A program made the position numbers and the translations under genes. The notes under the pieces are model-generated. The model was not told the origin of the DNA. It ran no database searches and saw only the letters and a list, made by a program, of their open reading frames with translations. A stretch of 64,000 nucleotides of DNA from the IMG/VR virus record IMGVR_UViG_3300025326_000025. One strand, 5' to 3'. This document shows positions 13,912 to 42,769 of the stretch, one piece after another. Each line of letters begins with the position of its first letter. Position 1 is the first letter of the stretch. Source of the DNA: a virus.

Positions 13912-13921
13912 TGGTTATTGG
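13912..13921 (-). promoter_or_regulatory. CCANNAACCA motif
   Basis: CCAATAACCA, 15 nt before ATG 13897. Confidence 0.65.
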
Positions 13922-13923
13922 CC

Positions 13924-15645
13924 TCATGGCGACCTCTCCGCGACGGTCATCCGGACGATGTAGACGCCCCTTCGGAGGCGCTCGATCGTGTACCCCTCCA
14001 TCCTCCCGACGAACCGCTCCTGGAGGTTGAAGTACAGGTAGAACAGGATCTCCAGGTCGCGATCGGCGACCGCAAAGGCCTCGAGGGCCGCGGCCATCGC
14101 ATCCCGATCCGACTCGTCGCCGAGGAGCAGACCCGCAACGTCCCACCGCTTCGCCTGGCTGCCGGACCCCTGGATGACGTCTTTGCCAGCCGGCACCCGG
14201 ACGACGTTCGATTTGGACGCCCGTCCGGGTGTCACCTTGCCGGCGTAGAGGAACACGGACTCGGAGCGTCCGTCGAGGTGCAGTTTCAGGATGCTCCCCG
14301 GCAAGACCGAGTTCTTGAGATACTGGACGATGAACACGTCCATGACCGGGATGTCGTCCGACAGTTCCCGGAACAGATTGCGGAACTGCTCGATGATGGC
14401 GCGTATGGAGACGGACTCGTCGGAGAGGCGCTCGTACTCGTTCGATAGATCCAGTTCGTCGATTGTCTCCACGGTCACGGGGACATCGACCTCGGCGACC
14501 ACCTGTCGGAAGAGGTCGTCCACCACGAGGATGTCGTCGGTCGGATACCGGGACGCCTCCATGATCGTAATGGGGTCCACGCCGATGACGAACGTCTCAT
14601 CCGCGAACCGTTCGGCCTTCGGCGCCCCGAACGCACGCGTGATGGGCAGGAGGAAGTGACGGAACGGGTACGCGGGCTTCGCCGCCATGCCGTTGAGGAA
14701 CGTGCGCTTCCAGATGACCGCCTGAGCGGACACCTCGATTGCAGCGCCCTCGATGAATGCGACCACTTGATCTGTGATCTGGATGTTCTTGAGGAAGTCC
14801 CTCTCGGGATTCCAGATGCGGACGAGTTGGTCCGTGACGGAGATCGAATCGGAGGGCCTCCGGTTCAGGCCCGTCTCGATGCGCACGAACGGCAGGACGA
14901 AGAAGCGCGTCGGATAGGCGGGCTTCGCGGCCAAGCCTCCGAAGAACGTCCGGCGCCAGACGATCGTGTTCGACAGGACGGAGACGGGCGGGGGAGGGGG
15001 TACATCCGAGAAGGCGGCCGTGACGCCGATCTCGAGCGTCGTGCGGAAGGAGCGGCGGAGGTTGTCCGTGACGGAGAGGTTCTGCGACAGGAAGCGGTTG
15101 AACGTGCTCCCGACGACCGAGAAGATGAGGTCGTCGTCCACGACGAAGGAGTCGGAGAATAGTCGAGAGTACGTCGTCCCGATGATTCGTGCGTCGACGG
15201 CGTCCGAAAAGGAGATGCCCACTTCCGGCAGGTCCTTCGATGCCGAGAAGATGCGACGTGGCGTGTCCGTGACCACGATCATCTGGGACAGGCGGACGGT
15301 GGTCGTACCGGCTTGGAGGGCCGCAGAGAGGGCATCCGACACATCGATGCTGTCGGATTTCCGGACAACGTATACGAATCGTACGGATCGCGTGACCGAG
15401 TCCGTCCATGACGGTCGGACGTTGATCCCCTTCGTCACGACGAATGTCCGGCGGATACCCGGGTCGTTGACGTCGATGACCTGAGACAGCCGACGGGTCA
15501 GACGTTTCGTCACCCGGACGGGAAAGTCTGAGACGTCGATCGTTTGGGACAGGAAGCGGTTCTTGATGGGCCCGGCGACGAAGGTGTGCCCCTCAATCGC
15601 GCGTATGCTGACCGTCTCGTTCGCAAAGCGCGTGAACAGGGCCAT
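13924..15645 (-). CDS. LSD-repeat protein with a C-terminal GpU/Dit-like domain (573 aa)
   Basis: About 15 LSD-type repeats, two W-R/K-RTF..G.AAKPAYP units; C-terminus similar to 15656-16078. Confidence 0.65.
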   Translation of the reverse strand: MALFTRFANETVSIRAIEGHTFVAGPIKNRFLSQTIDVSDFPVRVTKRLTRRLSQVIDVNDPGIRRTFVVTKGINVRPSWTDSVTRSVRFVYVVRKSDSIDVSDALSAALQAGTTTVRLSQMIVVTDTPRRIFSASKDLPEVGISFSDAVDARIIGTTYSRLFSDSFVVDDDLIFSVVGSTFNRFLSQNLSVTDNLRRSFRTTLEIGVTAAFSDVPPPPPVSVLSNTIVWRRTFFGGLAAKPAYPTRFFVLPFVRIETGLNRRPSDSISVTDQLVRIWNPERDFLKNIQITDQVVAFIEGAAIEVSAQAVIWKRTFLNGMAAKPAYPFRHFLLPITRAFGAPKAERFADETFVIGVDPITIMEASRYPTDDILVVDDLFRQVVAEVDVPVTVETIDELDLSNEYERLSDESVSIRAIIEQFRNLFRELSDDIPVMDVFIVQYLKNSVLPGSILKLHLDGRSESVFLYAGKVTPGRASKSNVVRVPAGKDVIQGSGSQAKRWDVAGLLLGDESDRDAMAAALEAFAVADRDLEILFYLYFNLQERFVGRMEGYTIERLRRGVYIVRMTVAERSP

Positions 15646-15655
15646 CCCGCATCCC

Positions 15656-16078
15656 TCACGGGACGCGGACGAGATCCACGTTCACGTCGAACATTCCCTT
15701 GCCGCGCCTCGCGTCGACCGAGTAATTCAGGATGAAGGCCGAGAACGACTCCTGAACGGCCCCCTCGATCGTCAGACTCACGCTCACGGCGCGCCCCTGC
15801 CAAGAGGCGCTGGTGCTGTGCCAGATGAGGTTGTCCAGCGCGCGCTCCTTCTGCACCTTTCCGGTCGCCCAGCTGCCGAGGGACACGGCAACGAGGCGCT
15901 CCCGCTTCGCGTTCGATCCGGCGGGCTGGAGGACGTCGGACGACGTACCCGGAATCGGGATGATGGAGAGCTTCGCGGACCCCGCCGGGGATAACTCTGT
16001 CGGCAGGAGGACGAGGCCGTTGTTCGGCTCCGAGAACCCGCCGCTACCCGAAATCTGCAGTCGAATGTCTGTCGTCAT
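15656..16078 (-). CDS. GpU/distal-tail-like protein (140 aa)
   Basis: IIPIPG..SDVLQPAGSNAKR aligns with VVRVPAG.DVIQGSGSQAKR in the preceding gene. Confidence 0.55.
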   Translation of the reverse strand: MTTDIRLQISGSGGFSEPNNGLVLLPTELSPAGSAKLSIIPIPGTSSDVLQPAGSNAKRERLVAVSLGSWATGKVQKERALDNLIWHSTSASWQGRAVSVSLTIEGAVQESFSAFILNYSVDARRGKGMFDVNVDLVRVP

Positions 16079-16085
16079 GTGTGGT

Positions 16086-17438
16086 TCACCCTCTCAGGAT
16101 CCTCCCGCCTTTCTTTCCGGAATGCCCGTAGATGAAGCGCGTCGGACCCGAGGTGACGGACGCGACGACCGTGTCGGAAACGGAGATGGAGTCGGAGAGG
16201 CGTTGAAGTGTTGCACCGAGCGGTCCGACCGAGAAGTACCACGCGAACGACTGCGATGGATCGGCATCGTCCATGATGCACGTGAATCCGTCGGAATCGA
16301 GGGACTTGAGATCCATGAGGCCCTCGGTCGTGTCGCTCGTGGACATGTTCGCATAGACTTCATCGTGCTCAAGAATGGTTCCTACTACCGACGTGTCCGC
16401 GTTGTCGTCGTCGTGGCATCCCTGGGCGCCACGATCCGTTGTTCCAGCGAATGCGCCCACGCTCAACTCAAGCCCGGCCGAGACCGTGTCCTCGGTACTC
16501 GCCGCCCTGCAGGCCGACACGATAAGGCCCGCTTTGGGAGCGAACCCGAACCCCGTCTCAACGATGTCCGTCGTCGTGTCCGTCTGCGTCAGGAGGGAAT
16601 CCACCCGGAAGTTCACGCCCCGGAGAGCCAGGTAGAAAAGGGTGACCGTGCCAGCGATATTCTCCGTCCAGTTGAGTCGGAAACCATTCGTGAGCCACGC
16701 TGTCAGAGTGGCCCGCCGCGCGATCGGGTTCGGATCGCTCGGGTCCGTGTCCATCCGGACGAAGATTTCCCCGGAACGGCAGTAGGACGCTGAATCGGTC
16801 AACGCCTGACCGTTCTCCGAGGAACAGGCCCAAACGGCATTCGACGGCGTAGAACCCGCCGCAGCACCGAAACTCGCTCGCGCGTGGACCGTCACCGTCA
16901 GGTCTGCACTTGCGGAATCAAGGATGAGCAGCGCATCGGGCGTGAATCCGAGGCTGGTGAAATCCTCATCTCCCGTCGCTCCGATGGATGAAACAACGGA
17001 TCCCTGTTCTACCTGAAGGTCCGATCCTCCGAGGGCTAGATACGTGACGCGATAGGTATCCACGAACGCGTTATCCGGAACGACCGAGAAGCCGTCCGAG
17101 TTGAAGGAGACGAAATCCAGCAATCCATCGACGACCCCACTCACGTCGATGGCCGATAAGCAGGCGGTCGTGTCCCGATAGCGGTCCGTGTTCGATGTCC
17201 CGGCGCCATCGTCGAGCTGCAATGACCATGTGTACCTCGACGTGGACGACACCGCCCATCCGATCGCCGGCTTCGCGTCCGCACCGCCGACGGAGTCGGA
17301 CGTACCGGTGCGCCCGGTCATGAAGAAGATGACGACTTTGGGCTGGAAGGTGCCCGCGTCGGGGTCCGTCGTGACGACGTCGATCTGGGAAGTGATGGTC
17401 GTCGTGCTGAACGCTCCAACGGCGCGGAAGAACGTCAT
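16086..17438 (-). CDS. Adhesin-like protein: one GFQP three-repeat domain plus terminal LSD unit (450 aa)
   Basis: TFQPKVVIF / GFTPDALLI / GFAPKAGLI repeats; ends RLSDSISVSD...FIYGHSGKKGGRILRG. Confidence 0.7.
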   Translation of the reverse strand: MTFFRAVGAFSTTTITSQIDVVTTDPDAGTFQPKVVIFFMTGRTGTSDSVGGADAKPAIGWAVSSTSRYTWSLQLDDGAGTSNTDRYRDTTACLSAIDVSGVVDGLLDFVSFNSDGFSVVPDNAFVDTYRVTYLALGGSDLQVEQGSVVSSIGATGDEDFTSLGFTPDALLILDSASADLTVTVHARASFGAAAGSTPSNAVWACSSENGQALTDSASYCRSGEIFVRMDTDPSDPNPIARRATLTAWLTNGFRLNWTENIAGTVTLFYLALRGVNFRVDSLLTQTDTTTDIVETGFGFAPKAGLIVSACRAASTEDTVSAGLELSVGAFAGTTDRGAQGCHDDDNADTSVVGTILEHDEVYANMSTSDTTEGLMDLKSLDSDGFTCIMDDADPSQSFAWYFSVGPLGATLQRLSDSISVSDTVVASVTSGPTRFIYGHSGKKGGRILRG

Positions 17439-20125
17439 GCCGGTATCTCCCGAAGGACACGCCCACCGTCAAGGCCCGCCGAGATGTAGATGAACTCAGA
17501 CGGTTCCGTCTCGGAGACGACGTGTGCGGATGCGATTCCCTCCGAAATCGTAATTCCGTCGGACAGACCCCGTACGAACGCGCCGGTCCCAAAGGCGAGG
17601 TATGCGATGATGTCGGCGGTGGCGTCGTTCGTCGTCCACCTGACGGTGAAGCCGTCCGTATCGTAGGATTTCATGTCCCCCGCGGCGAGCACGGACGGGG
17701 TGGATCCGTGGACCGCTGTAATGACGGCCTTCGTCATCGTGTCGTATTGGTCGACCTGCGTCGGCAAGACGGCGTCTCCACCGACCCCGGCGGACGCTCC
17801 CTCTTGGCTCCCGTCCTTCGAGGACGCGGCCCCGATCGCGAAGTTCTCATGCGCCTGAATCGAGTTCGACGATGTCTGATGGGTGTTCGCGAACAGGACC
17901 GCGCTCGGACTGAACCCGATGCCCGTGAAGGCGTCGTCGAGAGGTGCGGCCTCCGTCGCTTTCGCTTGGGTTCCTGCTTTGTATCTCCCGCCCTTCAGCA
18001 GGAGCATGACCCCAATCGTGCTCGCCGTCGCAGGCGCGTCGTTGATGGTCAGCGTCAATCCGTCCGAATCGAAGGAGGCGAGGCTCCAGTTCGCATCTTG
18101 CGCGCCGCCCGTCGTGAACGAGTACATACAGGCGTCCGTACGGAGGATCTTGTTCCAATCCATCGCTCCCGTCGTGGTGACGGCATCGTCGGCGCAGACG
18201 GCCACGCACCATTGGCTCGAGGCAGACGAGGCAGCTCCGAACGACATCGTCATGTGGTCGTTCTGGCCGCTTGCGACATGTGCCGTGTTGGCGTAGAGAA
18301 ACAGCGCGCAATCCGGTCGGAAGCCAGCGCCCGTGATGATCTGATCTGTGCCCGACGTGTTCATCGTCGGAAGGAGGACGATTGCGTCCTCCGCATCGGT
18401 CCCTCCGATGGCGAGCCAGAACAAACGTTCCGTCGCCAGCGCGACGTTGTAGGAGAGGGTGAACCCGTCCGCGTCCATGCTGTCCAGTTGAACGTTATTC
18501 GTGCCGTTCCACCATACCGATTCGTTGCGCGTCGAGTGCATCGTGTTCGTAGTCGACACGTTATCGTCGTTGCGCCACGCAATGCACCCCTGCTGGACGC
18601 TGGCCCCGCGTTTCGTCGCGAACCCGATGGATTCCCGCGTGCTCGCGACCCAGACGTTCCCGTTCGCCAGACCGCGGGATCTCCAGAATATGACCGCCTT
18701 CGGCTGGAAGTCCAGACCCGTGATGTCGTGGAAACCGATGTTGTTGTACTGGTTATCCCGCAGCACGACGGAGCCGTGCTTGACGCGGAGGCTCGGAGGC
18801 GCCGCCTGCCCGCCGTCCCCGATTGCGACATAGGTGACGTACCGCTGGGCGGTGCCGGGTGGGACGAACGGCCCATTCGGACTCGGGACAATCTGCTCCA
18901 CCGTGAATCCGTCGTCGTTCGTAGACGTCCACACGACTTCCTCCTCGATTCCGCCGGCCGTTGGTGGACCTCCCGGAGGCCATTCGGGGTCGATGGAGGC
19001 CCAGCAGCTCGTCGTCTTCGTCGTCGTGGCCGCCGCCATCGGGACCGTGCCGCCATCCGTCTCGTAGTCGAGATTTGCGATCCCCTGGGTGCCGTCCTCA
19101 TCGAAACCTCCGAGGTTAATCCCATAATCGTAGTCCGCGGGTTCCTCGTCGAGTTCGCCAAGGGACGAGTTCGTCGAGAGGAAGGCGACACCGCGCGGCC
19201 TGAAGCCCATGGAGACCGACAGGAGGCTCGGACTGTCCGTCTCGGATGCGACCCCGGGAAGATTGAGTGACCCCACGCGGCCCGAGAACGTGCCCCCGAG
19301 GATTAGCCCCAGGAAGCGCACGGAGGAGGTCGTGACCTTCGTGTGGTTGAGCGTGAACCCATCCGAGTCCCATGATATGAAGTCGGCCTTGTTGTCGCTG
19401 ATGAGATCGGCCTGCGCGCTCCCGTGCTTCGCCGACAGTAGGCATGACGATAGGGTGCTGAAATTCGCGCGGAGCTGCTGGACGTTCGTATTGTCGTTCG
19501 CGCAACAGGCCCACGCCCAGCGTCTCGATGTCGACTCGGCGGACCCCATTCCGAACGACGCGCCCGTCGCGGATCCCGTAGCGGTTTGATTCGTGTTCAG
19601 GAAAATGCCAATCTTCCCTTGGAAGCCCACTCCCGTGTAGGAACGGTTCCCCGTCGCGGTAGGACCGGTGAATCCACCGACGAACGCACCCGATACATCG
19701 CTCCCGCCGATGAAGGTGTAGTGGATGATGATGGCACTCGCCCCGCCGGGATTCTCCGTCCAGTTGACCGTGAACTTGCCGGCGTTACCTCCCGTCCCGA
19801 AGGAATCGAAGTCCGCAACGCTCTCCTGTGTAGGCGTGGAGTCTGAGAACACCTCGATGACGCGATCCGTGAAGTATCCCTTCCCGACGTTCGCCGGATC
19901 GACGCCGTTCTGGACGACATTCGAGATGCAGCCGCGCTGCGAGGGCGACGCCGCGACGCCAACTCCGAGGACCTTGTGGCCGCTCGACTCATCGAATCCG
20001 GACGTTGTCTGATTCGTCCAGAACAGGATGACGGCCTTACCGACGACTCCGCTGCCCGTGTCGATGGTCTGCGTTCCTGTGCCGGCGGGTCGCGTAAAGG
20101 TTCCCTTGACCCACGTCACAGCCAT
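17435..20125 (-). CDS. Adhesin-like protein: two GFQP three-repeat domains plus terminal LSD unit (896 aa)
   Basis: Six repeats; ends RGLSDGITISE...FIYISAGLDGGRVLR. Confidence 0.7.
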   Translation of the reverse strand: MAVTWVKGTFTRPAGTGTQTIDTGSGVVGKAVILFWTNQTTSGFDESSGHKVLGVGVAASPSQRGCISNVVQNGVDPANVGKGYFTDRVIEVFSDSTPTQESVADFDSFGTGGNAGKFTVNWTENPGGASAIIIHYTFIGGSDVSGAFVGGFTGPTATGNRSYTGVGFQGKIGIFLNTNQTATGSATGASFGMGSAESTSRRWAWACCANDNTNVQQLRANFSTLSSCLLSAKHGSAQADLISDNKADFISWDSDGFTLNHTKVTTSSVRFLGLILGGTFSGRVGSLNLPGVASETDSPSLLSVSMGFRPRGVAFLSTNSSLGELDEEPADYDYGINLGGFDEDGTQGIANLDYETDGGTVPMAAATTTKTTSCWASIDPEWPPGGPPTAGGIEEEVVWTSTNDDGFTVEQIVPSPNGPFVPPGTAQRYVTYVAIGDGGQAAPPSLRVKHGSVVLRDNQYNNIGFHDITGLDFQPKAVIFWRSRGLANGNVWVASTRESIGFATKRGASVQQGCIAWRNDDNVSTTNTMHSTRNESVWWNGTNNVQLDSMDADGFTLSYNVALATERLFWLAIGGTDAEDAIVLLPTMNTSGTDQIITGAGFRPDCALFLYANTAHVASGQNDHMTMSFGAASSASSQWCVAVCADDAVTTTGAMDWNKILRTDACMYSFTTGGAQDANWSLASFDSDGLTLTINDAPATASTIGVMLLLKGGRYKAGTQAKATEAAPLDDAFTGIGFSPSAVLFANTHQTSSNSIQAHENFAIGAASSKDGSQEGASAGVGGDAVLPTQVDQYDTMTKAVITAVHGSTPSVLAAGDMKSYDTDGFTVRWTTNDATADIIAYLAFGTGAFVRGLSDGITISEGIASAHVVSETEPSEFIYISAGLDGGRVLREIPA

Positions 20126-20149
20126 CTACGGCATCTCCGCTCGAAGAGA

Positions 20150-20159
20150 TGGTTGATGG
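20150..20159 (-). promoter_or_regulatory. CCANNAACCA motif
   Basis: CCATCAACCA, 25 nt before ATG 20125. Confidence 0.65.
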
Positions 20160-20160
20160 C

Positions 20161-20274
20161 CTAGCGCGCGTGCTTTTCCTTCCGGTGACGGACCCAATCG
20201 CGCCACGGCACCTCGTCGCCGCAGCCGCAGAGGATCGTCCCCGGTTGGACGTTTCCCTTCTTGCTCTTTGTCAT
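20161..20274 (-). CDS. 37-aa C2H2-like microprotein (not in the ORF track)
   Basis: MTKSKKGNVQPGTILCGCGDEVPWRDWVRHRKEKHAR; flanked by two CCATCAACCA motifs. Confidence 0.55.
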   Translation of the reverse strand: MTKSKKGNVQPGTILCGCGDEVPWRDWVRHRKEKHAR

Positions 20275-20306
20275 CTAGTTCGTAGCATGGAGGGATCTCC
20301 GGACGA

Positions 20307-20316
20307 TGGTTGATGG
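20307..20316 (-). promoter_or_regulatory. CCANNAACCA motif sharing its CCA with tRNA-Asn
   Basis: CCATCAACCA, 33 nt before ATG 20274. Confidence 0.6.
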
Positions 20317-20388: not shown

Positions 20389-20391
20389 GTG

Positions 20392-20464: not shown

Positions 20465-20465
20465 A

Positions 20466-20536: not shown

Positions 20537-20537
20537 A

Positions 20538-21184: not shown

Positions 21185-22015
21185 CTATTTGAAGTTCATG
21201 TCGTGGTTCGTGGCTGCGCGCTGTTTCGCATACAGGACGAACGGGTCCGGATCGCGGATCATTCGGTAGCCGAGATTGGCGGCCGCGCTGTTCACGCGGG
21301 CGTCGCGTTCCGCCTGCGCCGTCCGCCACGGGCCGTGACCCCCCGCGCCATCCAGCTCGAGGATGACCGCGAGATCGCGGACGGTCCCGTCACGCACACC
21401 GGGAACGCCTTCAACGACCTGCTGGAACCGGAAGCCGAGGCGCGTCGCCGGGTCCGAGATGACATGGGCGAGCCATACCCTCTCGTTGGACGTCGGGCGG
21501 CGGGCGAGCGAGGCTGCGAGCTTGCGATGGAACGCGGGGTCTTTGTGCCGTTCCTTCATCGAACGGCTCACGCCGTCGTGGCGGGACCGGATAAAGACGG
21601 GATTGGCGTTGTGGACCTTCATCCGGTCGCTGGCGGCCTTGTCCCACGATGGGTCAAATCGGAGCCGCGTCATCGTTCTGCGTGATCTTTGTTTGGCTGC
21701 CGCCGCGAACGCAGGGTTCTTGTGTAATCGTTTCATTCGACGACTCGATGCCTCGCGTCTTTTCTTCACGAAGTCGGGATCCGCGTTCAGTCTGTTTATC
21801 GTTCGCCGGGCCGATTCGGACTGTATCATGCGTCTTCGCGGATCTTCGCTCCAAGCCTCCGACATGGATCGACCGATTCCCGCCTTCTTGACCCATTTGT
21901 ACACGGCGCTCAATGACACGCCGACGGAATCGGACACCGATTCTAGACTCTTTCCGGACGCGTAGAGTTCGAGCGCTCTGTTTCTTATTCCGTCTGAGTA
22001 GGCACGGCGTGTCAT
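21185..22015 (-). CDS. Free-standing homing-endonuclease-like protein (HTH + basic NUMOD-like repeats + DUF559/Vsr-like nuclease)
   Basis: N-terminal HTH (ALELYASG.SLESVS..VGVS..AVYKWV); repeated S..MK..H.DP.F units; C-terminal PTSNE...FRFQ...D.AVILELDG..H...RD. Confidence 0.7.
   Translation of the reverse strand: MTRRAYSDGIRNRALELYASGKSLESVSDSVGVSLSAVYKWVKKAGIGRSMSEAWSEDPRRRMIQSESARRTINRLNADPDFVKKRREASSRRMKRLHKNPAFAAAAKQRSRRTMTRLRFDPSWDKAASDRMKVHNANPVFIRSRHDGVSRSMKERHKDPAFHRKLAASLARRPTSNERVWLAHVISDPATRLGFRFQQVVEGVPGVRDGTVRDLAVILELDGAGGHGPWRTAQAERDARVNSAAANLGYRMIRDPDPFVLYAKQRAATNHDMNFK
21204..21213 (-). promoter_or_regulatory. CCANNAACCA motif
   Basis: CCACGAACCA upstream of 21161 and the tRNA array. 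Confidence 0.6.
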
Positions 22016-22561: not shown

Positions 22562-22571
22562 TGGTTCATGG
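22562..22571 (-). promoter_or_regulatory. CCANNAACCA motif
   Basis: CCATGAACCA, 22 nt before ATG 22540. Confidence 0.65.
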
Positions 22572-24777: not shown

Positions 24778-24787
24778 TGGTTCGTGG
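24778..24787 (-). promoter_or_regulatory. CCANNAACCA motif
   Basis: CCACGAACCA, 15 nt before the tape measure ATG. Confidence 0.68.
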
Positions 24788-24799
24788 CGGTCGTTACCA

Positions 24800-24812
24800 T
24801 TAAGTAGTTGCC
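24800..24812 (+). promoter_or_regulatory. TATA-GTTGCC promoter of the inverted cassette
   Basis: TTAAGTAGTTGCC about 23 nt before GTG 24829. Confidence 0.7.
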
Positions 24813-24828
24813 CGCGTTTACCGAGAAC

Positions 24829-25026
24829 GTGGCCGACTCGGATGCGGTCGTTCTCGTCTTGGCGGTCCTCGGTTTGATCCTCGTCTTGTTCGCGGTCGGG
24901 CCGCTTCTCCTTCTCTGGTGCATCTACACGATTCTCGGGATGCCCATCCAACTGAGCCTTGAACGTTACGTCGCGGCGCTCCTCCTCATCCTATTCTTCG
25001 GCGTCAGTTTCCTCAAGAGCAAGTGA
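24829..25026 (+). CDS. Small two-TM membrane protein
   Basis: Highly hydrophobic; probable leaderless GTG start. Confidence 0.6.
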   Translation: MADSDAVVLVLAVLGLILVLFAVGPLLLLWCIYTILGMPIQLSLERYVAALLLILFFGVSFLKSK

Positions 25027-25031
25027 TTCGC

Positions 25032-25697
25032 ATGAACGTGAAACAGATAACGGTGGATCAGCAGACGGCGCAACGTGAGTACGAGGCCTACCGCGAGGCT
25101 CTCAAGACGAAGAAGGACGCGTTCCTGCACGACCTGAAGGTCGCGTACGGGCACATGCGGCACGGCCGGTCCGTCCTGGATGTGTGGCAAGCCTTCGCAG
25201 ATACCGGGCTCGACGCGAACGGCGACCCGAAGATCGCAATCGCGCGGGCGGACTGGCGCGAGGTCCGTTTCCGGAAGTTCAACGAACCCTACGGCTGGTG
25301 GACGGACATCGGCTTCCAAGGCATCTTCTCCGACAAGGATCGGACGCCGCATCCGTCTTGGAACGGAAGGACACGTCAGATTGTCGATATGGCGGCGAAG
25401 GACGATGTCACCGTTCCGAAGGGCACATGGAGATATCCCACGGAGGTCACGGTCGTGAACGGTCGTCCTCTGCGCGAGAGATTAAGGACGATCGTCCCGG
25501 TCGTACCGGCGCGCTTCCTCCCGAACCACGCCCTCGCGAACTACCACATCCTGTGGGAGGTCGAGAAGTGGGATGTCGTGACGCCGCCGCGGGATCCATT
25601 CCTGCTCAAGCGCGTCAGCCCGAACATCTTCGTCGTCCTCGCCGGTTGGGACCTGACGCCCGTCGAGCGCGCGGTCCTGCGTGGGCGGATCGCCTAG
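25032..25697 (+). CDS. Hypothetical protein (221 aa), antisense to the tail operon
   Basis: Globular-looking ORF with C-terminal PRDPFLL...FVVLAGWD; converges on 25694. Confidence 0.8.
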   Translation: MNVKQITVDQQTAQREYEAYREALKTKKDAFLHDLKVAYGHMRHGRSVLDVWQAFADTGLDANGDPKIAIARADWREVRFRKFNEPYGWWTDIGFQGIFSDKDRTPHPSWNGRTRQIVDMAAKDDVTVPKGTWRYPTEVTVVNGRPLRERLRTIVPVVPARFLPNHALANYHILWEVEKWDVVTPPRDPFLLKRVSPNIFVVLAGWDLTPVERAVLRGRIA

Positions 25698-26611: not shown

Positions 26612-26626
26612 GTCATCACATGGTTC

Positions 26627-26932
26627 TTAGGGAGACTCTTCCTCGACCTTCCCGGGACGCTGCACGGGACCGCCGTAGAGCTTCGCCAACTCATCGTAAT
26701 AGGCCTCGATGGCCGGCACGGAATCGGGGTTGTCCTTGACCATCTTGTGGAGGCTCTCGTCATCCGCAGGCGGCGGATTCGCCAAGATGTCCATCCGCGC
26801 CAGGATGATCGCCGAGGCGTACAGATCGTGGACCGGGTGCTTCCGCATGTCCTCGAGGGTCCAGCCGTGCTGCAAGAGCTTGCCCGTCACTCGGACGGCA
26901 ACCCGAGAGTCGCGAGCGAAGGCAAAAAATCC
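26627..26932 (-). CDS. Frameshift extension of the tail assembly chaperone (GT product)
   Basis: Open -1 frame entered at GGATTTTTTG; TLEDMRKHPVHDLYASAIILAR is typical of T-domain helices. Confidence 0.7.
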   Translation of the reverse strand, partial: GFFAFARDSRVAVRVTGKLLQHGWTLEDMRKHPVHDLYASAIILARMDILANPPPADDESLHKMVKDNPDSVPAIEAYYDELAKLYGGPVQRPGKVEEESP

Positions 26933-27407: not shown

Positions 27408-27417
27408 TGGTTGTTGG
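27408..27417 (-). promoter_or_regulatory. CCANNAACCA motif
   Basis: CCAACAACCA, 18 nt before the chaperone ATG. Confidence 0.68.
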
Positions 27418-28133: not shown

Positions 28134-28143
28134 TGGTTGATGG
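28134..28143 (-). promoter_or_regulatory. CCANNAACCA motif
   Basis: CCATCAACCA, 17 nt before the tail tube ATG. Confidence 0.68.
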
Positions 28144-28956: not shown

Positions 28957-28966
28957 TGGTTCGTGG
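28957..28966 (-). promoter_or_regulatory. CCANNAACCA motif
   Basis: CCACGAACCA, 19 nt before the holin-like ATG. Confidence 0.65.
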
Positions 28967-29405: not shown

Positions 29406-29415
29406 TGGTTCATGG
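29406..29415 (-). promoter_or_regulatory. CCANNAACCA motif
   Basis: CCATGAACCA just upstream of 29401. Confidence 0.5.
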
Positions 29416-32728: not shown

Positions 32729-32738
32729 TGGTTCTTGG
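32729..32738 (-). promoter_or_regulatory. CCANNAACCA motif
   Basis: CCAAGAACCA, 17 nt before ATG 32712. Confidence 0.65.
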
Positions 32739-36042: not shown

Positions 36043-37068
36043 TCAGATCCCGTCCACGAGCAGGAGCGCCTTCGGCGTCTTGAGGGCCGTCACGCGCTCG
36101 CTCCACGCCTGGTACACGGTCACGTGATCCTCGTCGCGCGTGTACTGGTTCGTGTTGAACGGTCCCGCGCGCCCGAACTGCGGGTCGAACGACTCGTAGA
36201 TCGTCGCGGCCTTTGCGCTCCGGTCGAATCCGAGGGCCTTGTTCGACTGCACGACGCCGGCCGAGTTCATGAACGAGAAGTCCACCGGGGTCAGGGTCAC
36301 TCCGAAGATGACCGGCACGGCGACGCCGGGCACGAACGGGGACTGCTGCCAGACGGTGTTCGTCTTGTTGATGAGCCGCTCGGCGACGTAGGTGTGTTCC
36401 TCGACGTCGACGAACAAGTCCGTGAGCCGGTACGGGTAGCGCGCGCCGTCGGAGTTCGTCTGCTTCGCGACGACGAGCTTCATCCGCAGGATGTCCTTAA
36501 TCGGGTCGGACGCCGTCTGATCCCACGCGTTCGCGGACGCCTGGTTGATCTCCAGGAACTTGCGTTTCTTCTCGTACCCGACGCCCGACGCGGTCGCACT
36601 CGGGTAGAGGTTCTGGAGGCCCGCGTCCGCGTCGATCGCGGCGGTCCCGACGGCCCAGTCGTTCGTCACATCGGCCGCGGTCTTGTTGTTCACGTACTCC
36701 GCGAGCCATGCGGCGAAGAGTTGCTGTCCGCGAACGACCTCGTCGATGTCCTTCGTGTACCGACGGACATCCGGGCCGTACTCGATCGCCATGCCGAACC
36801 CGGTCAGGGTCGCATACTTGCGGTCGAGGCGGGTCTGAATCTTGACGGTCGCGAACTCTCCTTCCGACGTCCGCGGGGCCGGGAATGCCTTGTCCGGGTG
36901 CGTGTACGCGGTGAACTTGTCGGCGAAGTAGGCCACCGTCGGGGCGTCCGCCGCGACGTGCGGGAACATGCCCTCGAAGATGAGTCGTGGTCCGACGAGT
37001 TCGCGCAGCTCGGCATCCTGGAACTCCTTCCGCAGGAGGTCGTGGACGGTCAGTATGATGTCAGGCAT
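36043..37068 (-). CDS. Major capsid protein (HK97 fold, probable)
   Basis: 341 aa downstream of protease-scaffold and decoration genes; EGEF.TV, G.AIEY, DPI.DI....L, C-terminal P.AL..V.G. Confidence 0.85.
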   Translation of the reverse strand: MPDIILTVHDLLRKEFQDAELRELVGPRLIFEGMFPHVAADAPTVAYFADKFTAYTHPDKAFPAPRTSEGEFATVKIQTRLDRKYATLTGFGMAIEYGPDVRRYTKDIDEVVRGQQLFAAWLAEYVNNKTAADVTNDWAVGTAAIDADAGLQNLYPSATASGVGYEKKRKFLEINQASANAWDQTASDPIKDILRMKLVVAKQTNSDGARYPYRLTDLFVDVEEHTYVAERLINKTNTVWQQSPFVPGVAVPVIFGVTLTPVDFSFMNSAGVVQSNKALGFDRSAKAATIYESFDPQFGRAGPFNTNQYTRDEDHVTVYQAWSERVTALKTPKALLLVDGI

Positions 37069-37073
37069 TCAAA

Positions 37074-37625
37074 TCACCCCACAATGAGGACGGCGTGTAG
37101 ACCCGCCGCACTCGAACTGTCGAGCAGCATCCCGTATGGCCGAGCCGGGCCAATGGAGTCCGTCGCCGGGACGGACGTGGTCGTCCAGTCCGAACCCGTG
37201 TTGCTGAATCCGACGAGGGTGCCTGCCACGACGGCCTCGCGCACCTTGACGCGCCGGATGACCTTGCCGGTGAGCCACTCGACCGTGGCCTTCCGCATGT
37301 CGTCTCGGCTGGAGAGGGTGATGGGTGCCGTGGACGTCGGATCGATGCCCTGCGGGAATCCGAGAGGTTCCTCGATGACGCGCCCGACGGGCTTCTGGTC
37401 CGAGTGGGGCCGCGCGAAGATTGTGAGGTTCCCCTGGGACGACGCGGTCCATGGCTGGACGTAGTCGCCCGCGGCAATCTTGAGGGAGTACGTGCCGTAC
37501 GGCCCGAACTTCTCGCCGGACGGTCCCGTGACCGCCGAGATGGGCGTGAAGACACCTTCGTAGAGGGCGCCGGACTGCTGCAGGCCCTTTCCGATGTCTG
37601 CCGGGTTCGTGATGACGGATGGCAT
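37074..37625 (-). CDS. Capsid decoration/cement protein (probable)
   Basis: Between scaffold and capsid; KIAAGDYV, AVVAGTLV...G..L pattern. Confidence 0.65.
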   Translation of the reverse strand: MPSVITNPADIGKGLQQSGALYEGVFTPISAVTGPSGEKFGPYGTYSLKIAAGDYVQPWTASSQGNLTIFARPHSDQKPVGRVIEEPLGFPQGIDPTSTAPITLSSRDDMRKATVEWLTGKVIRRVKVREAVVAGTLVGFSNTGSDWTTTSVPATDSIGPARPYGMLLDSSSAAGLHAVLIVG

Positions 37626-37642
37626 GGTTTTTCACACTCCTT

Positions 37643-39556
37643 CTAGGCGGGCTTGTTCTCCAGCGGTCCCATCCCCAAGAGCGCGGCCTTGTACGCCTTC
37701 AGGGCCGCAATCTGTTCGGGTGTGAGATCGGGTTCGTCGGACCCCGCGACGAAACGTGCGAGGTTGACCTCTCCGGACGCGGCCGGGATGATGAGGTCGT
37801 CGCGAGGCTTCGTGGCCTGTGCGCCGGAGTGGGATGTCTTCCCGCTCTTGACGCCAGACGCGATGACCCGGAGTTGCTCCAGGGAGAACTGCTCGAACTC
37901 CTTGACATCCACGTCCATTTTCTTGAGCGCCAAGAGTTCGGAGTAGCGTTCCTGCTTGAGGCGGTCCTCGCGGAACTTCGCGAGATCGTCACGTTCCTTC
38001 TGCGCGGCCTCGAGTTGCGCCCGCAGCGCCACGATCGTCTGTTCATCGGACATGAGAGTCCCTTCGGACGGTGGTTTCTGGTTTCCCGCCAGAAGGGCCG
38101 CCTTCTCCGCCTCGAGGGCGTCGAGTTTGGCCTTCATTTCGGCGATGACCGTCGCGTTGTCTTCTGTCATATTTGCCTCGGACGGTGGTTCGTGGTTTCC
38201 GTCGGGCGATGGCATGACGGTCCATTCCCATCCCGTCCCGCTCCCGTCGGACGGGATGCTGATGAACGAACTGTCGGCGGCGATCGTTGCGGAGGTGTTC
38301 CCCGGAGTACCGCTTGTCGACGCGAAGATGATGTTTCCTGTGGCGGTGTTGGTCGCGCCGACGGACTTCGCCTCGGATGGCTTCTCCTTCGAGTAGGACA
38401 TCGTCGTGTACCAGGACAACCCGCCTTTCTTTCCGCTCGCGTTGAATCCGGCGGACTCGATGTCGACGTCGTGCGCCCGAAGGCACGCAGTCGCCTCCTC
38501 GAGGTGCACGCGGAGGCATCCTTCCAGACCCCCCTCCATGTCTCCGTGGTAGGCGGCCTCGGCACCCGATACCTCGACCCCGTGCTTCTTCGCCCGTCGA
38601 ACGAGGCATGCGTGGATCTTCGCCTTCGCCGCGGGGCCGAAGTTCGAGTTCTTAAGACGTGCGAGGCCGTTCCGGGCATGCGCCGCGTCGTGCGCGGGGA
38701 AGCTCCGACCGGGTCCGCAGAAGGCCGAATCCGGCAGGGCGTTCCGCGTCTTTGCCGTCAACTTGGCACCCAAGGCGACACCGGATGCCTCGAGTCCGGA
38801 ATCCCAGTATGGGCCTTCCTGTCGCCAGAGTTCCGCGGCGAAGTCGTCGTCGTCCAGCTCGTATTCAATCGTTCCGCCGCAGCAGCCCTCATCCTCGTCT
38901 GGATTGTCCATAATCTCACCCATTTTGTAGCCGACAACATAACAGTTGTCAGGAGAACAGGCAGGCACGGACGGGGTCACGACGAACGTGTTCCCCATGC
39001 CGATCGCGTCGACAATCTCTGTCCCGGAGAGTTCCTTCACGACCGCCTCGACGGACGTGAACACATCGGGCATGAGGCGGTCGAGGATGGCCTTCATGTT
39101 CGATTCAATCTTGATGCGGAGGACGAGTTCGTCCTTCAGGTCGTTGTCGATGTCGGACACGGTCGCTGCGACGACGGTTCCGTCGAGTTCGGTGTCGTGA
39201 TAATGGTTGATTCCTACCTTCGTCCCGACCCACGTCCCGGCGATCTTCCGGAGTGTCCCGGGGCGCCATGTGACCATGATGACATCGCCGTCGGCCATGC
39301 GCATGTAGACGGGCGAACCGTCCTCGGCCGCGACGACCGTGATGATGCCGTCGTTATCGGGATCCAGGACGAAGTCTCCGAAGTCCTCCCCGACGACCGC
39401 GTTCTCTCCGGACGTGCCGACGACGCGCGAATAGCAAATGGCTACCTTCTGGGCCTTCGTGTACGGCTTTCCGGTGCGCTTGTTCTTCCCGGTGACCTGT
39501 TCCGTGCACCGGTCCATCTTACCCCAGAGGTTCTTGGGCACGTTCGAGTACGGCAT
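37643..39556 (-). CDS. Prohead protease-scaffold fusion (ChaB-like N-terminus, protease, DUF6582-like insert, coiled-coil scaffold)
   Basis: MPY..VP..LW...AICY start; VGINH and FTSVE protease-like motifs; L....RNALPDSAF.GP.RSFP.HD..HAR..LAR; C-terminal coiled coil. Confidence 0.8.
   Translation of the reverse strand: MPYSNVPKNLWGKMDRCTEQVTGKNKRTGKPYTKAQKVAICYSRVVGTSGENAVVGEDFGDFVLDPDNDGIITVVAAEDGSPVYMRMADGDVIMVTWRPGTLRKIAGTWVGTKVGINHYHDTELDGTVVAATVSDIDNDLKDELVLRIKIESNMKAILDRLMPDVFTSVEAVVKELSGTEIVDAIGMGNTFVVTPSVPACSPDNCYVVGYKMGEIMDNPDEDEGCCGGTIEYELDDDDFAAELWRQEGPYWDSGLEASGVALGAKLTAKTRNALPDSAFCGPGRSFPAHDAAHARNGLARLKNSNFGPAAKAKIHACLVRRAKKHGVEVSGAEAAYHGDMEGGLEGCLRVHLEEATACLRAHDVDIESAGFNASGKKGGLSWYTTMSYSKEKPSEAKSVGATNTATGNIIFASTSGTPGNTSATIAADSSFISIPSDGSGTGWEWTVMPSPDGNHEPPSEANMTEDNATVIAEMKAKLDALEAEKAALLAGNQKPPSEGTLMSDEQTIVALRAQLEAAQKERDDLAKFREDRLKQERYSELLALKKMDVDVKEFEQFSLEQLRVIASGVKSGKTSHSGAQATKPRDDLIIPAASGEVNLARFVAGSDEPDLTPEQIAALKAYKAALLGMGPLENKPA
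38072..38081 (-). promoter_or_regulatory. CCANNAACCA motif, intragenic
   Basis: CCAGAAACCA, 19 nt before in-frame ATG 38053. Confidence 0.68.
38186..38195 (-). promoter_or_regulatory. CCANNAACCA motif, intragenic
   Basis: CCACGAACCA, 16 nt before in-frame ATG 38170. Confidence 0.68.
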
Positions 39557-39578
39557 ACGGTCGGACGATGGTTGCGGG

Positions 39579-39995
39579 TTACGTCACTCCAGTCGGCGGT
39601 TCGGTCGGGAGCCACATGGCGTCCCGGCGCTGCGCGGACGGTCGCCTCTTGATGACGTACTCGTAGGCCGCGTCCATCGTCGGCAGGACGCCAGTATTGA
39701 ATAGATACCACGCCATCGTCAGAGGCGATCGTTCGACGCCGGCACCGCAATGCACGAGGACCTCCTCGCCAATGGCGACGAGACCGTGGATGACGGTCAT
39801 CGCCAAGTCGAGCTGCCCGAGGTCGGCGCGGACCTCTCCACCCTCGTTCCGTAGAATGGGGATGTGTATCGTCCCCGGACGATCCGCGTGGTACGGAGAG
39901 CACATCTCGAGGACGCAGATCCGGATGACCTCGGGCGGGGCCTTCGCGGCGTCCTCCATGCTCCCGAGATAGAGTCCTGGCAGAATCTCGTCCAC
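39579..39995 (-). CDS. Dual-specificity (Cx5R) phosphatase
   Basis: EILPGLYLGS and VHCGAGVERS P-loop. Confidence 0.92.
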   Translation of the reverse strand: MDEILPGLYLGSMEDAAKAPPEVIRICVLEMCSPYHADRPGTIHIPILRNEGGEVRADLGQLDLAMTVIHGLVAIGEEVLVHCGAGVERSPLTMAWYLFNTGVLPTMDAAYEYVIKRRPSAQRRDAMWLPTEPPTGVT

Positions 39996-39996
39996 G

Positions 39997-40641
39997 TCAA
40001 TCCTCCGATTCTCGTGTCCACGGATAGATGGTGAACCGACGGAACTCGCCGATGCGCCACAGGATGCTCAAAGAACACGCAGCGAGGGCGACGGCGAGGG
40101 TCGTGAACCACGCTTCCAAGCCCGGGTACACGAGGCTAATGTTCCATGCGGCATGCACGGCCGACATCCCGATCCACCCGAAGACGTTAATCGTCATTCC
40201 AGTCGACGTGCCGACCTTGTGGACGCGCTTCGTCGCCTTCGTGATGCCGACCGCTAGGATGAAGAACAGGACATGACCGCCATACACGAACCGGATGAGG
40301 AGCGTCGACCAGAACCAGACGCCCCACACGGTCCCGATGCTCACGCCGAAGAGGATGGCCTCGGCCTCCGCCGAGAGAGCATAGAAGACGGATTCGATCA
40401 GGGACGCGACGATGACAATCTCCAGGGCATACCAGAACCGGAAGTTCCGCAGGACGAGATAGACAAGCATCCCCTCGATGAAGAAAGCACTCAGGATGTA
40501 CGCAATCCACGCCTTCTCGATGTCCCACATCGGGAAGTAACCGGCGACGAGAGGATTCCACAGCAGCGCGAGCAAAGCCATAGTCAGGGCGATGAGCACG
40601 GCCATGATCGAGGCTCTCACCGTCTCATGTCTCACGAGCAT
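39997..40641 (-). CDS. PrsW-like intramembrane metalloprotease
   Basis: Multi-TM with IEG, LIES, GH and HAAWN residues in PrsW-like order. Confidence 0.6.
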   Translation of the reverse strand: MLVRHETVRASIMAVLIALTMALLALLWNPLVAGYFPMWDIEKAWIAYILSAFFIEGMLVYLVLRNFRFWYALEIVIVASLIESVFYALSAEAEAILFGVSIGTVWGVWFWSTLLIRFVYGGHVLFFILAVGITKATKRVHKVGTSTGMTINVFGWIGMSAVHAAWNISLVYPGLEAWFTTLAVALAACSLSILWRIGEFRRFTIYPWTRESED

Positions 40642-40870
40642 CCCTCAAGATGTTGTGGACGAAGGCGTAGACCAGAGCCGGGAATACGGCTGCGAGCATG
40701 ACGAGTTCGAAGGGACCTTCTCCCTCGAGGTTCCAGACGAGATACGATATCCAGTATCGCCCGCCGTAGATCCATCCCTTCACGATTGATGAGAGGATGA
40801 TGATGAACGCGGCCAGGGACACCGATTGCGCGACGATACGAACGGCCTTTCCTGCGCCGGAGAGAGTCAC
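40625..40870 (-). CDS. Small two-TM membrane protein
   Basis: GTGA overlap with the portal stop; hydrophobic. Confidence 0.65.
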   Translation of the reverse strand: MTLSGAGKAVRIVAQSVSLAAFIIILSSIVKGWIYGGRYWISYLVWNLEGEGPFELVMLAAVFPALVYAFVHNILRDARET

Positions 40871-42204
40871 AGGGATTCCTTCGTGGCGCTCGTCGGAGCG
40901 GGAAGTTGCAGTTTCGGCGTCTTCGCGGCGATCGGGTCAAACACCGTCGTCCCCGCGTCCACGATGTCGAGCATGTCCGTCAGGAACTCCTTCGAGACGA
41001 GGCCGCGCTCGTAGAGGCGCATGAGGGACACGGACCGGCGTTCCCAGTCGCGGTCGTCCATATCGAACACGATGTCGACGTCGGAATCCGCGATCTTCGT
41101 GAGGAGGGTGCGTCGGAGGTCGTGCGCGATCTGCCCGCGGACGCGGGCGATCATGTGCGAGGACAGTTCCTTCTCCTCTTCGAGGATTGCGCGGTTCGCA
41201 CCCTGTTGCAGGAAGTACCCGAGGGCGAACCCGAAGTTCATGAGGACGACCGAGATGATGGGCGTCAGGAGTGCCATGACTGGAAGGAGGTTCGCTCCGC
41301 CGCCTCCCCCGCCGAGGGATCCGACGACGCCGATGTCGTGGCGCGAGTCCGTCACGATGTTCGACGTGGCGCTGTGGACGTTCTTGAACTTCAGGGACCA
41401 CTCCTTGATGGCCGCGGACTTCTCCGCGTCCGTCGCGAATCCCTCTGTGTCGATCTTCGCCAGCAGGGGAGCGTACGCGATGCGCTTGAGGGCCGCCGGG
41501 ATATCCTTGCTCGACTGGTCAAGTGCCGAGAACAGGAGGATGTTCGGCCGGAACAGACTCATCCCGTACGGCGATCGGGGCCACTCCTTGAGACGAAGAT
41601 GGATGAGGTTCTCGGACCGGAGAGGGATGCGCTTCATCTCCGGCGTGGCGTGATAGGTGTCGTGCGCGATGTATCGACGATCCTGCGTGTACTCAATGAC
41701 CCCGTCCGTCATGAACATCCGGATTGACTCGAAATCGATGATGCGCGTGCCGACGACCTCGCCTCCTCGCATGGCGACGTCCCCACCGCCGTTGCCGAGT
41801 ACGACCGCCTGTCGGACCATGATGGGGAGTTTGTGACGGGTGTCGTCCATCTCGAAGAACTCCTCGACCTTCTTGACCGCCCGCGGCTTTCCCTCGAAGT
41901 GGAAATCGTTCGCGAAGATCTCGTTGACGAGGTACTCCGACACCATGTACGCCCACGGGTTCGAGAGGTACATGCGCGAGTAGTCCCGGTAGAACACGGG
42001 CTCGTCATACTGCCAGATGCTCTTGTGCATCTCGAAATCGTACGGGTCGTAATCCTCGAGGACCGTCTTGTCCTCTCGGAAGGTCGTGTACGGCAGGAGG
42101 CTCGCGAAGGCAGGCGGGACGGCGGTCGTCTGCGGCGGACGTGCCCGGAGTTCGTAACCGCGCATGAGACGGAAGGAATCTTCGAGAAGGGGGTCGCGTG
42201 CCAT
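40867..42204 (-). CDS. Portal protein
   Basis: 445 aa between terminase and protease; QAVVLGNG, ENLIHLR....R.PYG.S.F.P. Confidence 0.88.
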   Translation of the reverse strand: MARDPLLEDSFRLMRGYELRARPPQTTAVPPAFASLLPYTTFREDKTVLEDYDPYDFEMHKSIWQYDEPVFYRDYSRMYLSNPWAYMVSEYLVNEIFANDFHFEGKPRAVKKVEEFFEMDDTRHKLPIMVRQAVVLGNGGGDVAMRGGEVVGTRIIDFESIRMFMTDGVIEYTQDRRYIAHDTYHATPEMKRIPLRSENLIHLRLKEWPRSPYGMSLFRPNILLFSALDQSSKDIPAALKRIAYAPLLAKIDTEGFATDAEKSAAIKEWSLKFKNVHSATSNIVTDSRHDIGVVGSLGGGGGGANLLPVMALLTPIISVVLMNFGFALGYFLQQGANRAILEEEKELSSHMIARVRGQIAHDLRRTLLTKIADSDVDIVFDMDDRDWERRSVSLMRLYERGLVSKEFLTDMLDIVDAGTTVFDPIAAKTPKLQLPAPTSATKESL

Positions 42205-42208
42205 GTCG

Positions 42209-42769
42209 TCACTCCGTTGGTTCGTGGCCTTCTCCCGACCCAGGAGGTTTCAGGGTCGCCTTCGCAACGCGGTAGGCTTCGCGCATCGCCCGGAGATTCG
42301 CGCAGATGGCGATGCGATAGGCGACGGACGCCGCGGATTCGGGATGGGACGCCAAGATGTTCCGGTAGATACGTTCGGCGTCTTCCTCGTCCTTCTTCGA
42401 TTCCGACTCGGGCCTCGCGCCCGCACGTATGAGGAGTGCATGTAAGGCAGGCAGGATCTCCTTGTCGGGTATCGCGGAGAATGACCCCCGCAGGGCCCCG
42501 CCTACCCTTGTCTCGAACCATTCCGAGAATCCTTCGACCTCTGCGGTTTCCGATATCGGCGCGGGTTCGTCTGGTTCTTGATCCGGCAAGGCTGCCTGTA
42601 TGATTTCCGGCGTCTTCGTGACAGGACCGTTGTCATTTTCCCTGCGAGTCTTACGCGCCCGGGTGGATTTCGGGACGGCGACGGTGGCCGTGTCCTCGTC
42701 TCCGCGTATGATGGCGGCGATCTTCTCGAGGCGATCCGCCAACTTCCGGGCGTCCTCGTCTAACGTCAA
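42209..42769 (-). CDS. Hypothetical protein (186 aa)
   Basis: Packed ORF with start/stop overlaps. Confidence 0.6.
   Translation of the reverse strand: MTLDEDARKLADRLEKIAAIIRGDEDTATVAVPKSTRARKTRRENDNGPVTKTPEIIQAALPDQEPDEPAPISETAEVEGFSEWFETRVGGALRGSFSAIPDKEILPALHALLIRAGARPESESKKDEEDAERIYRNILASHPESAASVAYRIAICANLRAMREAYRVAKATLKPPGSGEGHEPTE
42218..42227 (-). promoter_or_regulatory. CCANNAACCA motif
   Basis: CCACGAACCA, 14 nt before the portal ATG. Confidence 0.68.

Follow-up and report, generated by a model that had tools for sequence, protein, structure and literature searches.

A conserved ten-letter word upstream of virion gene starts in a probably archaeal virus, a candidate signal beside weak Shine-Dalgarno sites

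Gene content and promoters of the viral genome

The DNA analyzed here is a stretch of 64,000 nucleotides from the virus record IMGVR_UViG_3300025326_000025 (referred to as the window), in which the ten-letter word CCANNAACCA recurs in front of virion gene starts. Together with 10 kb beyond the window ends, ~74 kb of the ~92-kb genome were examined. Proteins recognized in the window include a PCNA-type clamp, a Ro60/TROVE protein, RusA, an integrase, a tape-measure protein, a Neck1-like protein, several glycosyltransferases, and a B12 radical-SAM enzyme, plus a weak match to an HK97-type capsid protein. The virus also harbors a set of genes for RNA metabolism, consisting of Ro60/TROVE, RlaP, a DSPc phosphatase, and a tRNA array. 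Almost all genes of the window lie on the minus strand.

A second repeated element, TATA-GTTGCC, was found 21 to 24 nt before ATG or GTG starts and before the 5' ends of two Y-like RNAs. Boxes of this type are located on the minus strand at positions 61824, 54752, 53118, 48327, 35939, 35025, 33187, and 33087. Several of them sit within the inverted repeat GGCAAC-N9-GTTGCC, which looks like an operator, and a relative of the virus carries the same class of boxes. Judged from the sequence, their geometry with a rigid spacing of ~23 nt corresponds to an archaeal TATA box from which leaderless transcripts arise. This uncultured tailed virus is probably archaeal because of its PCNA gene, this promoter geometry, and the GGTGA ribosome sites found in its distant relatives.

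Enrichment of the word on the coding strand and close to starts

A pattern search of the window revealed 14 exact copies of CCANNAACCA, all on the coding (minus) strand, and recovered the same 14 copies that had been listed in an earlier inspection of the letters alone (here termed the sequence-only reading). About one copy is expected by chance, with 0.87 in dinucleotide shuffles (largest value, 3) and 1.07 in a second-order Markov simulation (largest value, 5). Scanned exhaustively against the shuffled background, the plus strand holds 0 copies and the minus strand is strongly enriched. The copies are confined to one part of the genome: none was found in the 42.3- to 64-kb or the 1- to 13.9-kb portion of the window, and the 10 kb of the same genome beyond the window ends contain 0 copies.

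The proximity to downstream starts that had been noted before was equally clear. The zone 12 to 35 nt before a start codon makes up 2.6% of positions and holds the ends of 12 of the 14 exact copies (binomial P, ~9e-18), a count that takes in two internal starts added post hoc and is 10 of 14 without them. The gene calls used for measuring these distances were based on codon statistics and were made independently of the motif. This confirms CCANNAACCA as a gene-start word.

Single-mismatch copies are not enriched in the window (26 versus ~29 expected). Since this class is at chance level, the word behaves as all-or-none. The three one-mismatch copies pointed out in the sequence-only reading (26621, 39569, and 60005) all exist, as members of a class at chance level, and only those at 26621 and 39569 gain support from relatives, which retain a degenerate copy at the corresponding junction.

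Positions of the individual copies

The copies are described from high to low window coordinates, all on the minus strand, with distances counted from the word to the start codon. The first exact copy (CCACGAACCA, 42218 to 42227) lies inside the 3' end of an upstream gene for a protein of 186 amino acids (aa) and 13 nt before ATG 42204 of a portal-like gene. At the portal junction, the copy is kept in the compared sequences L010 and L019. A degenerate copy, CCCGCAACCA (39569 to 39578), is found 12 nt before ATG 39556 of a 637-aa open reading frame (ORF), a probable protease-scaffold gene; its counterparts in relatives, CCTCCAACCA and CCCCGAACCA, are located at the same place and are likewise degenerate, of the form CCY..AACCA. 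Two exact copies lie within this ORF, one at 38186 to 38195, 15 nt before the in-frame internal ATG 38170, and one at 38072 to 38081, 18 nt before a second in-frame internal ATG (38053).

The copy at 32729 to 32738 precedes ATG 32712 of a 149-aa gene by 16 nt. It is exact in the relative, and a one-mismatch copy, ACAACAACCA, occupies the orthologous junction in L003. A 103-aa gene (ATG 28938) has its copy at 28957 to 28966, at a distance of 18 nt, and a 212-aa gene (ATG 28117) has its copy at 28134 to 28143, immediately 3' of the upstream stop codon TAA and at a distance of 16 nt. The 212-aa gene is a putative tail tube gene, a label taken over from the sequence-only reading.

The copy at 27408 to 27417 lies 17 nt before ATG 27390 of a 167-aa gene. 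At this junction, the word is missing from the relative, in which a stronger Shine-Dalgarno (SD) site, GAGGTGAT, is found where the window has GAAGTGAT. The 167-aa gene reads T TTT TTG in its zero frame at 26923 to 26929 (minus strand), which is conserved in the relative, and an overlapping ORF in the -1 frame (27136 to 26627) includes the "87-aa gene." This T6 slippery site looks like the frameshift site of tail assembly chaperone genes rather than a terminator. The next gene with a copy is a 305-aa gene resembling Neck1 or tail completion genes (ATG 26611), which is preceded at 9 nt by the degenerate copy CTAAGAACCA (26621 to 26630), with CGAAGAACCA in the relative.

The tape-measure gene (ATG 24763) has an exact copy at a distance of 14 nt (24778 to 24787), which comes after a plus-strand insert (24808 to 25697) bearing its own promoter. 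This two-gene cassette with its own TATA-GTTGCC box (24802 to 25697, plus strand) splits the tail operon just before the tape-measure gene; at the equivalent position, the relative has a same-strand 389-aa gene. A 161-aa gene (ATG 22540) and a 325-aa gene (ATG 13897) are preceded by exact copies at 22562 to 22571 and 13912 to 13921, at distances of 21 nt and 14 nt, respectively.

Two copies are followed by short ORFs ahead of the gene. The one at 20307 to 20316 abuts tRNA-Asn, so that the first CCA of the word is the CCA of the tRNA; 3' of it follow an SD site, a mini-ORF of 5 codons (ATG 20288; 18 nt), and a 37-aa Cys/His ORF (ATG 20274; 32 nt). The shared CCA had been taken as a hint at RNA processing. 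It is a coincidence, as the orthologous copy of the relative lies ~170 nt after the last tRNA. The copy at 20150 to 20159 is followed by an SD site, a mini-ORF of 2 codons (ATG 20134, TAG; 15 nt), and ATG 20125 of a gene for an 896-aa tail protein (24 nt). In the relative, the same cassette stands before an unrelated 827-aa gene.

Two further exact copies are atypical. The exact copy at 29406 to 29415 has an ATG within the word (29413) or 4 nt beyond it, at a 148-aa gene without an SD site; it has no orthologue in the relative and could be a chance copy. The exact copy at 21204 to 21213 lies at the 3' end of a DUF559 endonuclease gene, 42 nt before ATG 21161, and it has no orthologue in the relative. 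As a degenerate TATA-like box follows 4 nt further on, the earlier statement that starts with the word lack the TATA-GTTGCC element holds for all but this one. The one-mismatch copy ACACGAACCA (60005 to 60014) lies in the nonstructural region, 15 nt before ATG 59989. It belongs to the class at chance level, comparison with relatives provided no support for it, and its status as a genuine element is uncertain.

Conservation of the word in related genomes

A portal homologue with 71% identity was identified on a 95-kb metagenomic contig, of which 38.9 kb were compared with the window. The contig of this relative contains 11 exact copies (0.77 expected), which without exception lie on the coding strand within the morphogenesis part, and the word is kept at 10 of the 11 window junctions that have an orthologous gene start. 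At orthologous sites, the eight fixed bases are 100% identical, a figure that partly follows from the pairing of sites because both carry the word; the two N positions are identical at 56% and the flanks and spacer at ~43%. A third genome fragment, L019 (69% portal identity), retains the portal copy and both internal copies. The degenerate copies before the 637-aa ORF and the 305-aa gene are degenerate in every genome compared and look like conserved weak sites.

The word is absent from L017 (43% portal identity) and from low-GC relatives (33 to 38% identity), which use long GGTGA-type sites. A scan of IMG/VR with a 17-base pattern returned only unrelated coding matches. To judge by these comparisons, the word is functional and confined to a narrow lineage. 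In the low-GC relatives L002 and L012 to L014, consecutive virion genes are joined by a rigid TAGGTGAG-N4-6-ATG arrangement, in which the stop codon overlaps the SD site.

The pattern of conservation also bears on the idea that the word has no function in expression and is a recombination linker or module boundary, or a hitchhiking duplicate of one leader. Unrelated tail genes behind the same cassette in two viruses would fit such an origin, as would a 20-nt identical stretch shared by the leaders of copies 38186 and 28957. However, this 20-nt identity is not kept in the relative, and ten bases are too short for homologous exchange. Of 11 orthologous junctions, 10 retain all eight fixed positions in spite of drift in the flanks, and the internal copies are located within a linker-coding sequence instead of at the edge of a module. 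We therefore regard this explanation as highly improbable.

In-frame internal starts in the 637-aa ORF

The 637-aa ORF lies between the portal and capsid genes. Its internal ATGs 38170 and 38053 are in frame, and each is preceded by the word and an SD-like GAR; word, GAR, and ATG of both starts are kept in three genomes. The linker peptide encoded at the internal copies diverges (DGNHEPPSEAN versus DGNQKPQAEAEI) and has an indel.

By analogy with known virion modules, the ORF is a probable protease-scaffold gene with nested scaffold starts. In phage lambda, the C/Nu3 pair consists of a scaffold nested within the prohead protease gene and translated from an internal start. The archaeal virus HFTV1 produces its scaffold by internal translation initiation in the protease gene with no internal rise in RNA, and the mechanism selecting the internal scaffold start was reported as unknown in a ribosome profiling study (bioRxiv 10.64898/2026.09.13.751334). 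The 637-aa ORF resembles HFTV1 gp17 in having an in-frame internal start in an ORF between the portal and capsid genes. It differs in that HFTV1 has one internal start with a good GGTGAT SD site, whereas here there are two, each flagged by the word. The ORF product shows no sequence similarity to HFTV1 gp17, no match in Pfam or NCBIfam, and no functional match in PHROG. In the HFTV1 genome, the word occurs in only 1 copy per strand and a CTAACCA word is at best weakly enriched.

Anatomy of the element and its spacing

Alignment of 28 exact sites from three genomes yielded the consensus R-CCA-NN-AACCA, followed by six mostly pyrimidine bases, GAR(G), and an ATG 4 to 11 nt after GAR. A purine directly precedes the word in 28/28 sites, giving two R-CCA units 7 nt apart, and another purine is found at +8 in all 28. 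The YCGTCCG continuation described in the sequence-only reading is real, albeit loose, its conserved part being the pyrimidine-rich hexamer and then GAR. While the distance between the word and the SD-like GAR is fixed at 6 to 7 nt, that to the ATG varies between 12 and 32 nt. Overall, the word spans about -14 to -34 relative to the start. The SD-like element is a separate GAR(G), 6 nt 3' of the word; the word itself cannot pair contiguously with the generic archaeal anti-SD GAUCACCUCCU, its fixed positions being only C and A.

This spacing is relevant to the possibility of a late promoter or initiator without a TATA box, read by a virus-modified host polymerase or an unrecognized viral polymerase. 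Transcription would then start near GAR, 7 nt 3' of the word, and each gene with the word would head a late transcript with a short leader. The distribution of the word is like that of T4 and T7 late promoters, with ~14 copies in 28 kb, in a single orientation and before late genes only. An element of ~20 nt ending in purine-rich GAGG or GAAG also resembles the initiation regions of promoters for single-subunit polymerases, tandem copies ahead of the genes for scaffold and capsid would increase their RNA level, and the tape-measure gene has no same-strand promoter directly upstream. The spacing, however, argues against it: the genome's own promoter class keeps a rigid 23 nt, compared with the 12 to 32 nt between word and ATG. 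An AT-rich box is missing 20 to 30 nt upstream of the word, the hexamer preceding the putative transcription start is GC-rich, the word is never found before an RNA gene, and the internal scaffold start of HFTV1 is translational. We consider a promoter unlikely. Searches with Pfam, PHROGs, NCBIfam, and Atlas identified no genes for an RNA polymerase, TBP, TFB, or a sigma-like factor in ~74 of the ~92 kb, with many ORFs giving no match. A 913-aa ORF that was considered as a viral polymerase looks like a tail protein.

The position of the word is also compatible with a processing site in the mRNA, at which a host enzyme (e.g., beta-CASP) or a viral endonuclease would cut the late RNA in or next to the word. 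Such a cut would leave a short unstructured leader with the SD site at its 5' end, thereby stabilizing and activating the downstream cistron. Archaeal mRNAs are cut just upstream of ribosome-binding sites, mostly 20 to 30 nt before the start, and the cut transcripts are more stable and better translated (PMC5499594; Zhang and Olsen 2009 on M. jannaschii, cited therein). The location of the word at about -14 to -34, its strict strand specificity, and its occurrence inside an ORF are in line with this, as are the similarity of its two R-CCA units to tRNA 3' ends and the RNA-metabolism genes of the virus. Yet the published archaeal signature is uridine-rich and the fixed positions of the word contain no U, the adjacency to a tRNA is not conserved in the relative, a candidate nuclease was not identified, and a cut inside the 637-aa ORF would destroy the full-length message. 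Processing appears rather unlikely, though slightly more probable than a promoter.

Association of the word with weak ribosome-binding sites

The word precedes only protein starts and never the tRNA array or the two Y-like RNAs, the latter using the TATA-GTTGCC box. SD pairing is weaker at starts with the word, with a median of -5.9 versus -7.2 kcal/mol (P = 0.004); none of these starts has an SD site beyond -8.5 kcal/mol, compared with 29 of 69 other starts. The capsid gene and its neighbors have long GGTGA sites and no word. Junctions with and without the word also differ in the gap between stop and start, which is 22 to 36 nt where the word is present; where it is absent, the genes overlap or are separated by <17 nt.

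A same-strand TATA-GTTGCC promoter is located upstream of every gene with the word except the tape-measure gene. No intergenic T-run terminator was found in the late module, and the tail region has a single T-run, namely the conserved T6 slippery site in the chaperone genes.

In four cassettes, the ATG at the usual distance from the word opens a mini-ORF of 2 to 11 codons, whose stop codon abuts, overlaps, or closely precedes the main start. The arrangements are TAG-ATG, ATGA, TAATG, and TGA plus 6 nt before GTG. Since unrelated large tail genes are found behind the same cassette in two viruses, word, SD site, and ATG move together like a transferable unit of initiation. Ahead of the large tail gene, both viruses have the cassette ATG in frame with the main ORF, parted from it by a single in-frame stop: the window reads ATG CCG TAG ATG (20126 to 20134, minus strand) and the relative has 11 codons, TGA, 6 nt, and GTG (L016:15814-15856, plus strand). 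This configuration could reflect reinitiation, a recombination scar, or stop codon read-through. Termination-reinitiation of the TURBS type was considered as the sole function of the word and rejected, as two copies lie inside an ORF without an upstream stop.

Occurrence of the virus and further features of the genome

The virus is present in soil, sediment, and groundwater metagenomes. Neither a DNA search nor a terminase search found close relatives among deposited phages, and a search of a phage collection with the tape-measure protein gave only weak matches, to Acinetobacter phages. Capsid-based scans of IMG/VR, JGI metagenomes, and species genomes returned nothing or one 1.4-kb piece. No host signal was obtained from an integrase scan of species genomes, a search for partial tRNAs and attP, or Atlas taxa.

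The tRNA array comprises 8 tRNAs in the window and 10 in the relative. It is adjoined by the DUF559 (Vsr-like endonuclease) gene (21185 to 21673, minus strand), which lacks a counterpart in the relative and is possibly a homing-type insertion. Just after the array, the unannotated 37-aa ORF (20161 to 20274, minus strand) encodes a C-x-C ... H-x4-H pattern. It is 84% identical in the relative, above most of its neighbors, and its distance from the word is unusually long yet conserved (30 to 32 nt). From this pattern, its product may be a small zinc-binding protein that binds nucleic acid.

Another repeated leader, GGCCCGCGAACGGG, is present in three exact copies and one with a single mismatch (0.1 expected), at 908 to 921 and 1130 to 1143 on the plus strand and at 56586 to 56599 and 60624 to 60637 on the minus strand. 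Two of these copies run on into (A/G)GGAAGATTGA-ATG ahead of small genes that lie close to the integrase and within the replication region.

Discussion

The anatomy, position, strand, and conservation of the word, and its association with weak SD sites, are shown by the present analysis. With a probability of roughly 45%, we favor the view that the word is an RNA-level signal beside a weak SD site that marks fresh initiation on polycistronic late mRNAs. The reasons are the fixed spacing to GAR, the ATG that always follows, the absence of the word before RNA genes, the in-frame internal starts, the weaker SD sites, and the mini-ORFs. Of the three explanations offered in the sequence-only reading (a late promoter, an RNA processing site, and a translational enhancer), the one linked to translation is thereby favored and the promoter is weakened. 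The action in RNA, the sign of the effect (activation or repression), and the identity of the reader are what we infer from this pattern.

The late genes seem to be transcribed as long polycistronic mRNAs from TATA-GTTGCC promoters. Most cistrons are coupled to the previous one by an overlapping or closely abutting stop and start or have a long SD site of the GGAGGTGA type. The cistrons with the word have only a short SD site and lie 22 to 36 nt past the previous stop or inside an ORF. Under this proposal, the word would be a second recognition element just 5' of the SD site. Its reader could be a component of the ribosome or, more likely given the narrow lineage range and the all-or-none sequence, a trans-acting protein, which would recruit the small subunit or gate its access. 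The outcome would be initiation independent of the upstream cistron, and the 637-aa ORF would yield two scaffold-like proteins with truncated N termini. In a bolder version, which we put forward only tentatively and think rather improbable, a virus-encoded protein would read the word as an RNA operator, and the word would form, with a deliberately weak SD site, a switchable second class of ribosome entry site on polycistronic archaeal mRNAs. If so, virion genes and nested scaffold isoforms would be timed and dosed posttranscriptionally, and one promoter class (TATA-GTTGCC) would serve early and late genes.

Several points weigh against a role of the word in translation. The major capsid gene, which is expected to be the most highly expressed, does not have the word. 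The tape-measure gene follows an insert on the opposite strand and would need either read-through or a promoter of its own, which fits a promoter better. No RNA complementary to the word is encoded in the 74 kb examined, with no TGGTTNNTGG on the transcribed strand. The two principal genomes are relatives of each other, so that the statistics overcount. Strictly, the SD pairing, the exchange at the 167-aa gene, the gaps between stop and start, and the mini-ORFs show that the SD site and the ATG are in use rather than that the word acts in translation. Predicted accessibility does not help either: the word is more open than random 10-mers and equal to other AACCA words inside genes, and since this openness is explained by base composition alone, accessibility is not evidence. 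The earlier suggestion that the word works simply by being unstructured and A/C-rich fails for the same reason and because its eight fixed bases stay the same in diverged genomes, a constancy that implies specific recognition.

The selection of internal starts on polycistronic mRNAs by archaeal ribosomes is poorly understood, as is the way in which archaeal viruses control the timing and dose of their virion proteins. The lineage described here provides, at internal start sites, an 11-nt candidate signal that is sharply defined, conserved, and mutable, with built-in natural controls in the degenerate copies at the protease start, the loss of the word along with a strengthened SD site in the relative, and the genes without the word. 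A role in translation would make the word a novel kind of determinant of initiation in archaea, and a role as promoter or processing site would make it a new signal of that class, specific to the virus. In practical terms, it improves the annotation of start codons and nested genes in this virus group.

Among known systems, the late promoters of T4 (TATAAATA) and T7-type promoters depend on a phage sigma factor or polymerase, and their distance to the start is not tied to the SD site. The word shares with them its many copies before late genes in a single orientation and differs in its fixed distance to the SD-like GAR. It also does not look like an archaeal BRE/TATA core promoter, which has an AT-rich box centered ~26 to 27 nt before the transcript start with rigid spacing, as it is not AT-rich, lies 12 to 32 nt from the ATG, and has no TATA upstream. 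With the processing of archaeal 5' untranslated and intergenic regions (Qi et al. 2017, PMC5499594), it has in common the location 12 to 30 nt upstream of the starts of internal cistrons and, putatively, the tuning of stoichiometry among components of a complex. The published processing signature, however, is uridine-rich and degenerate (UNMND/NUNAY), whereas the word is free of U at its fixed positions, exact, and specific for a virus lineage.

By the features compared here, the closest analogue is the set of start-associated sequences (SAS) of Cluster K mycobacteriophages. The SAS is an asymmetric 13-bp word, GGGATAGGAGCCC, which is present in 11 to 19 copies within one half of the genome, lies 3 to 7 bp from the start, and contains the SD core (Pope et al. 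2011, PMC3203893). It is conserved across subclusters, even before different genes, and marks nonstructural genes of a bacterial virus; its function is unknown, and a role in translation initiation has been proposed (PMC3203893). Both elements are asymmetric, multicopy, nearly restricted to one orientation, located upstream of starts in one part of the genome, and lineage restricted. The word is nevertheless an analogue and not a member of the SAS: it is unrelated in sequence, contains no SD core, and lies 6 nt 5' of a separate weak SD site and 12 to 21 nt from the start. Moreover, it marks virion genes and in-frame internal starts, in a virus that is probably archaeal.

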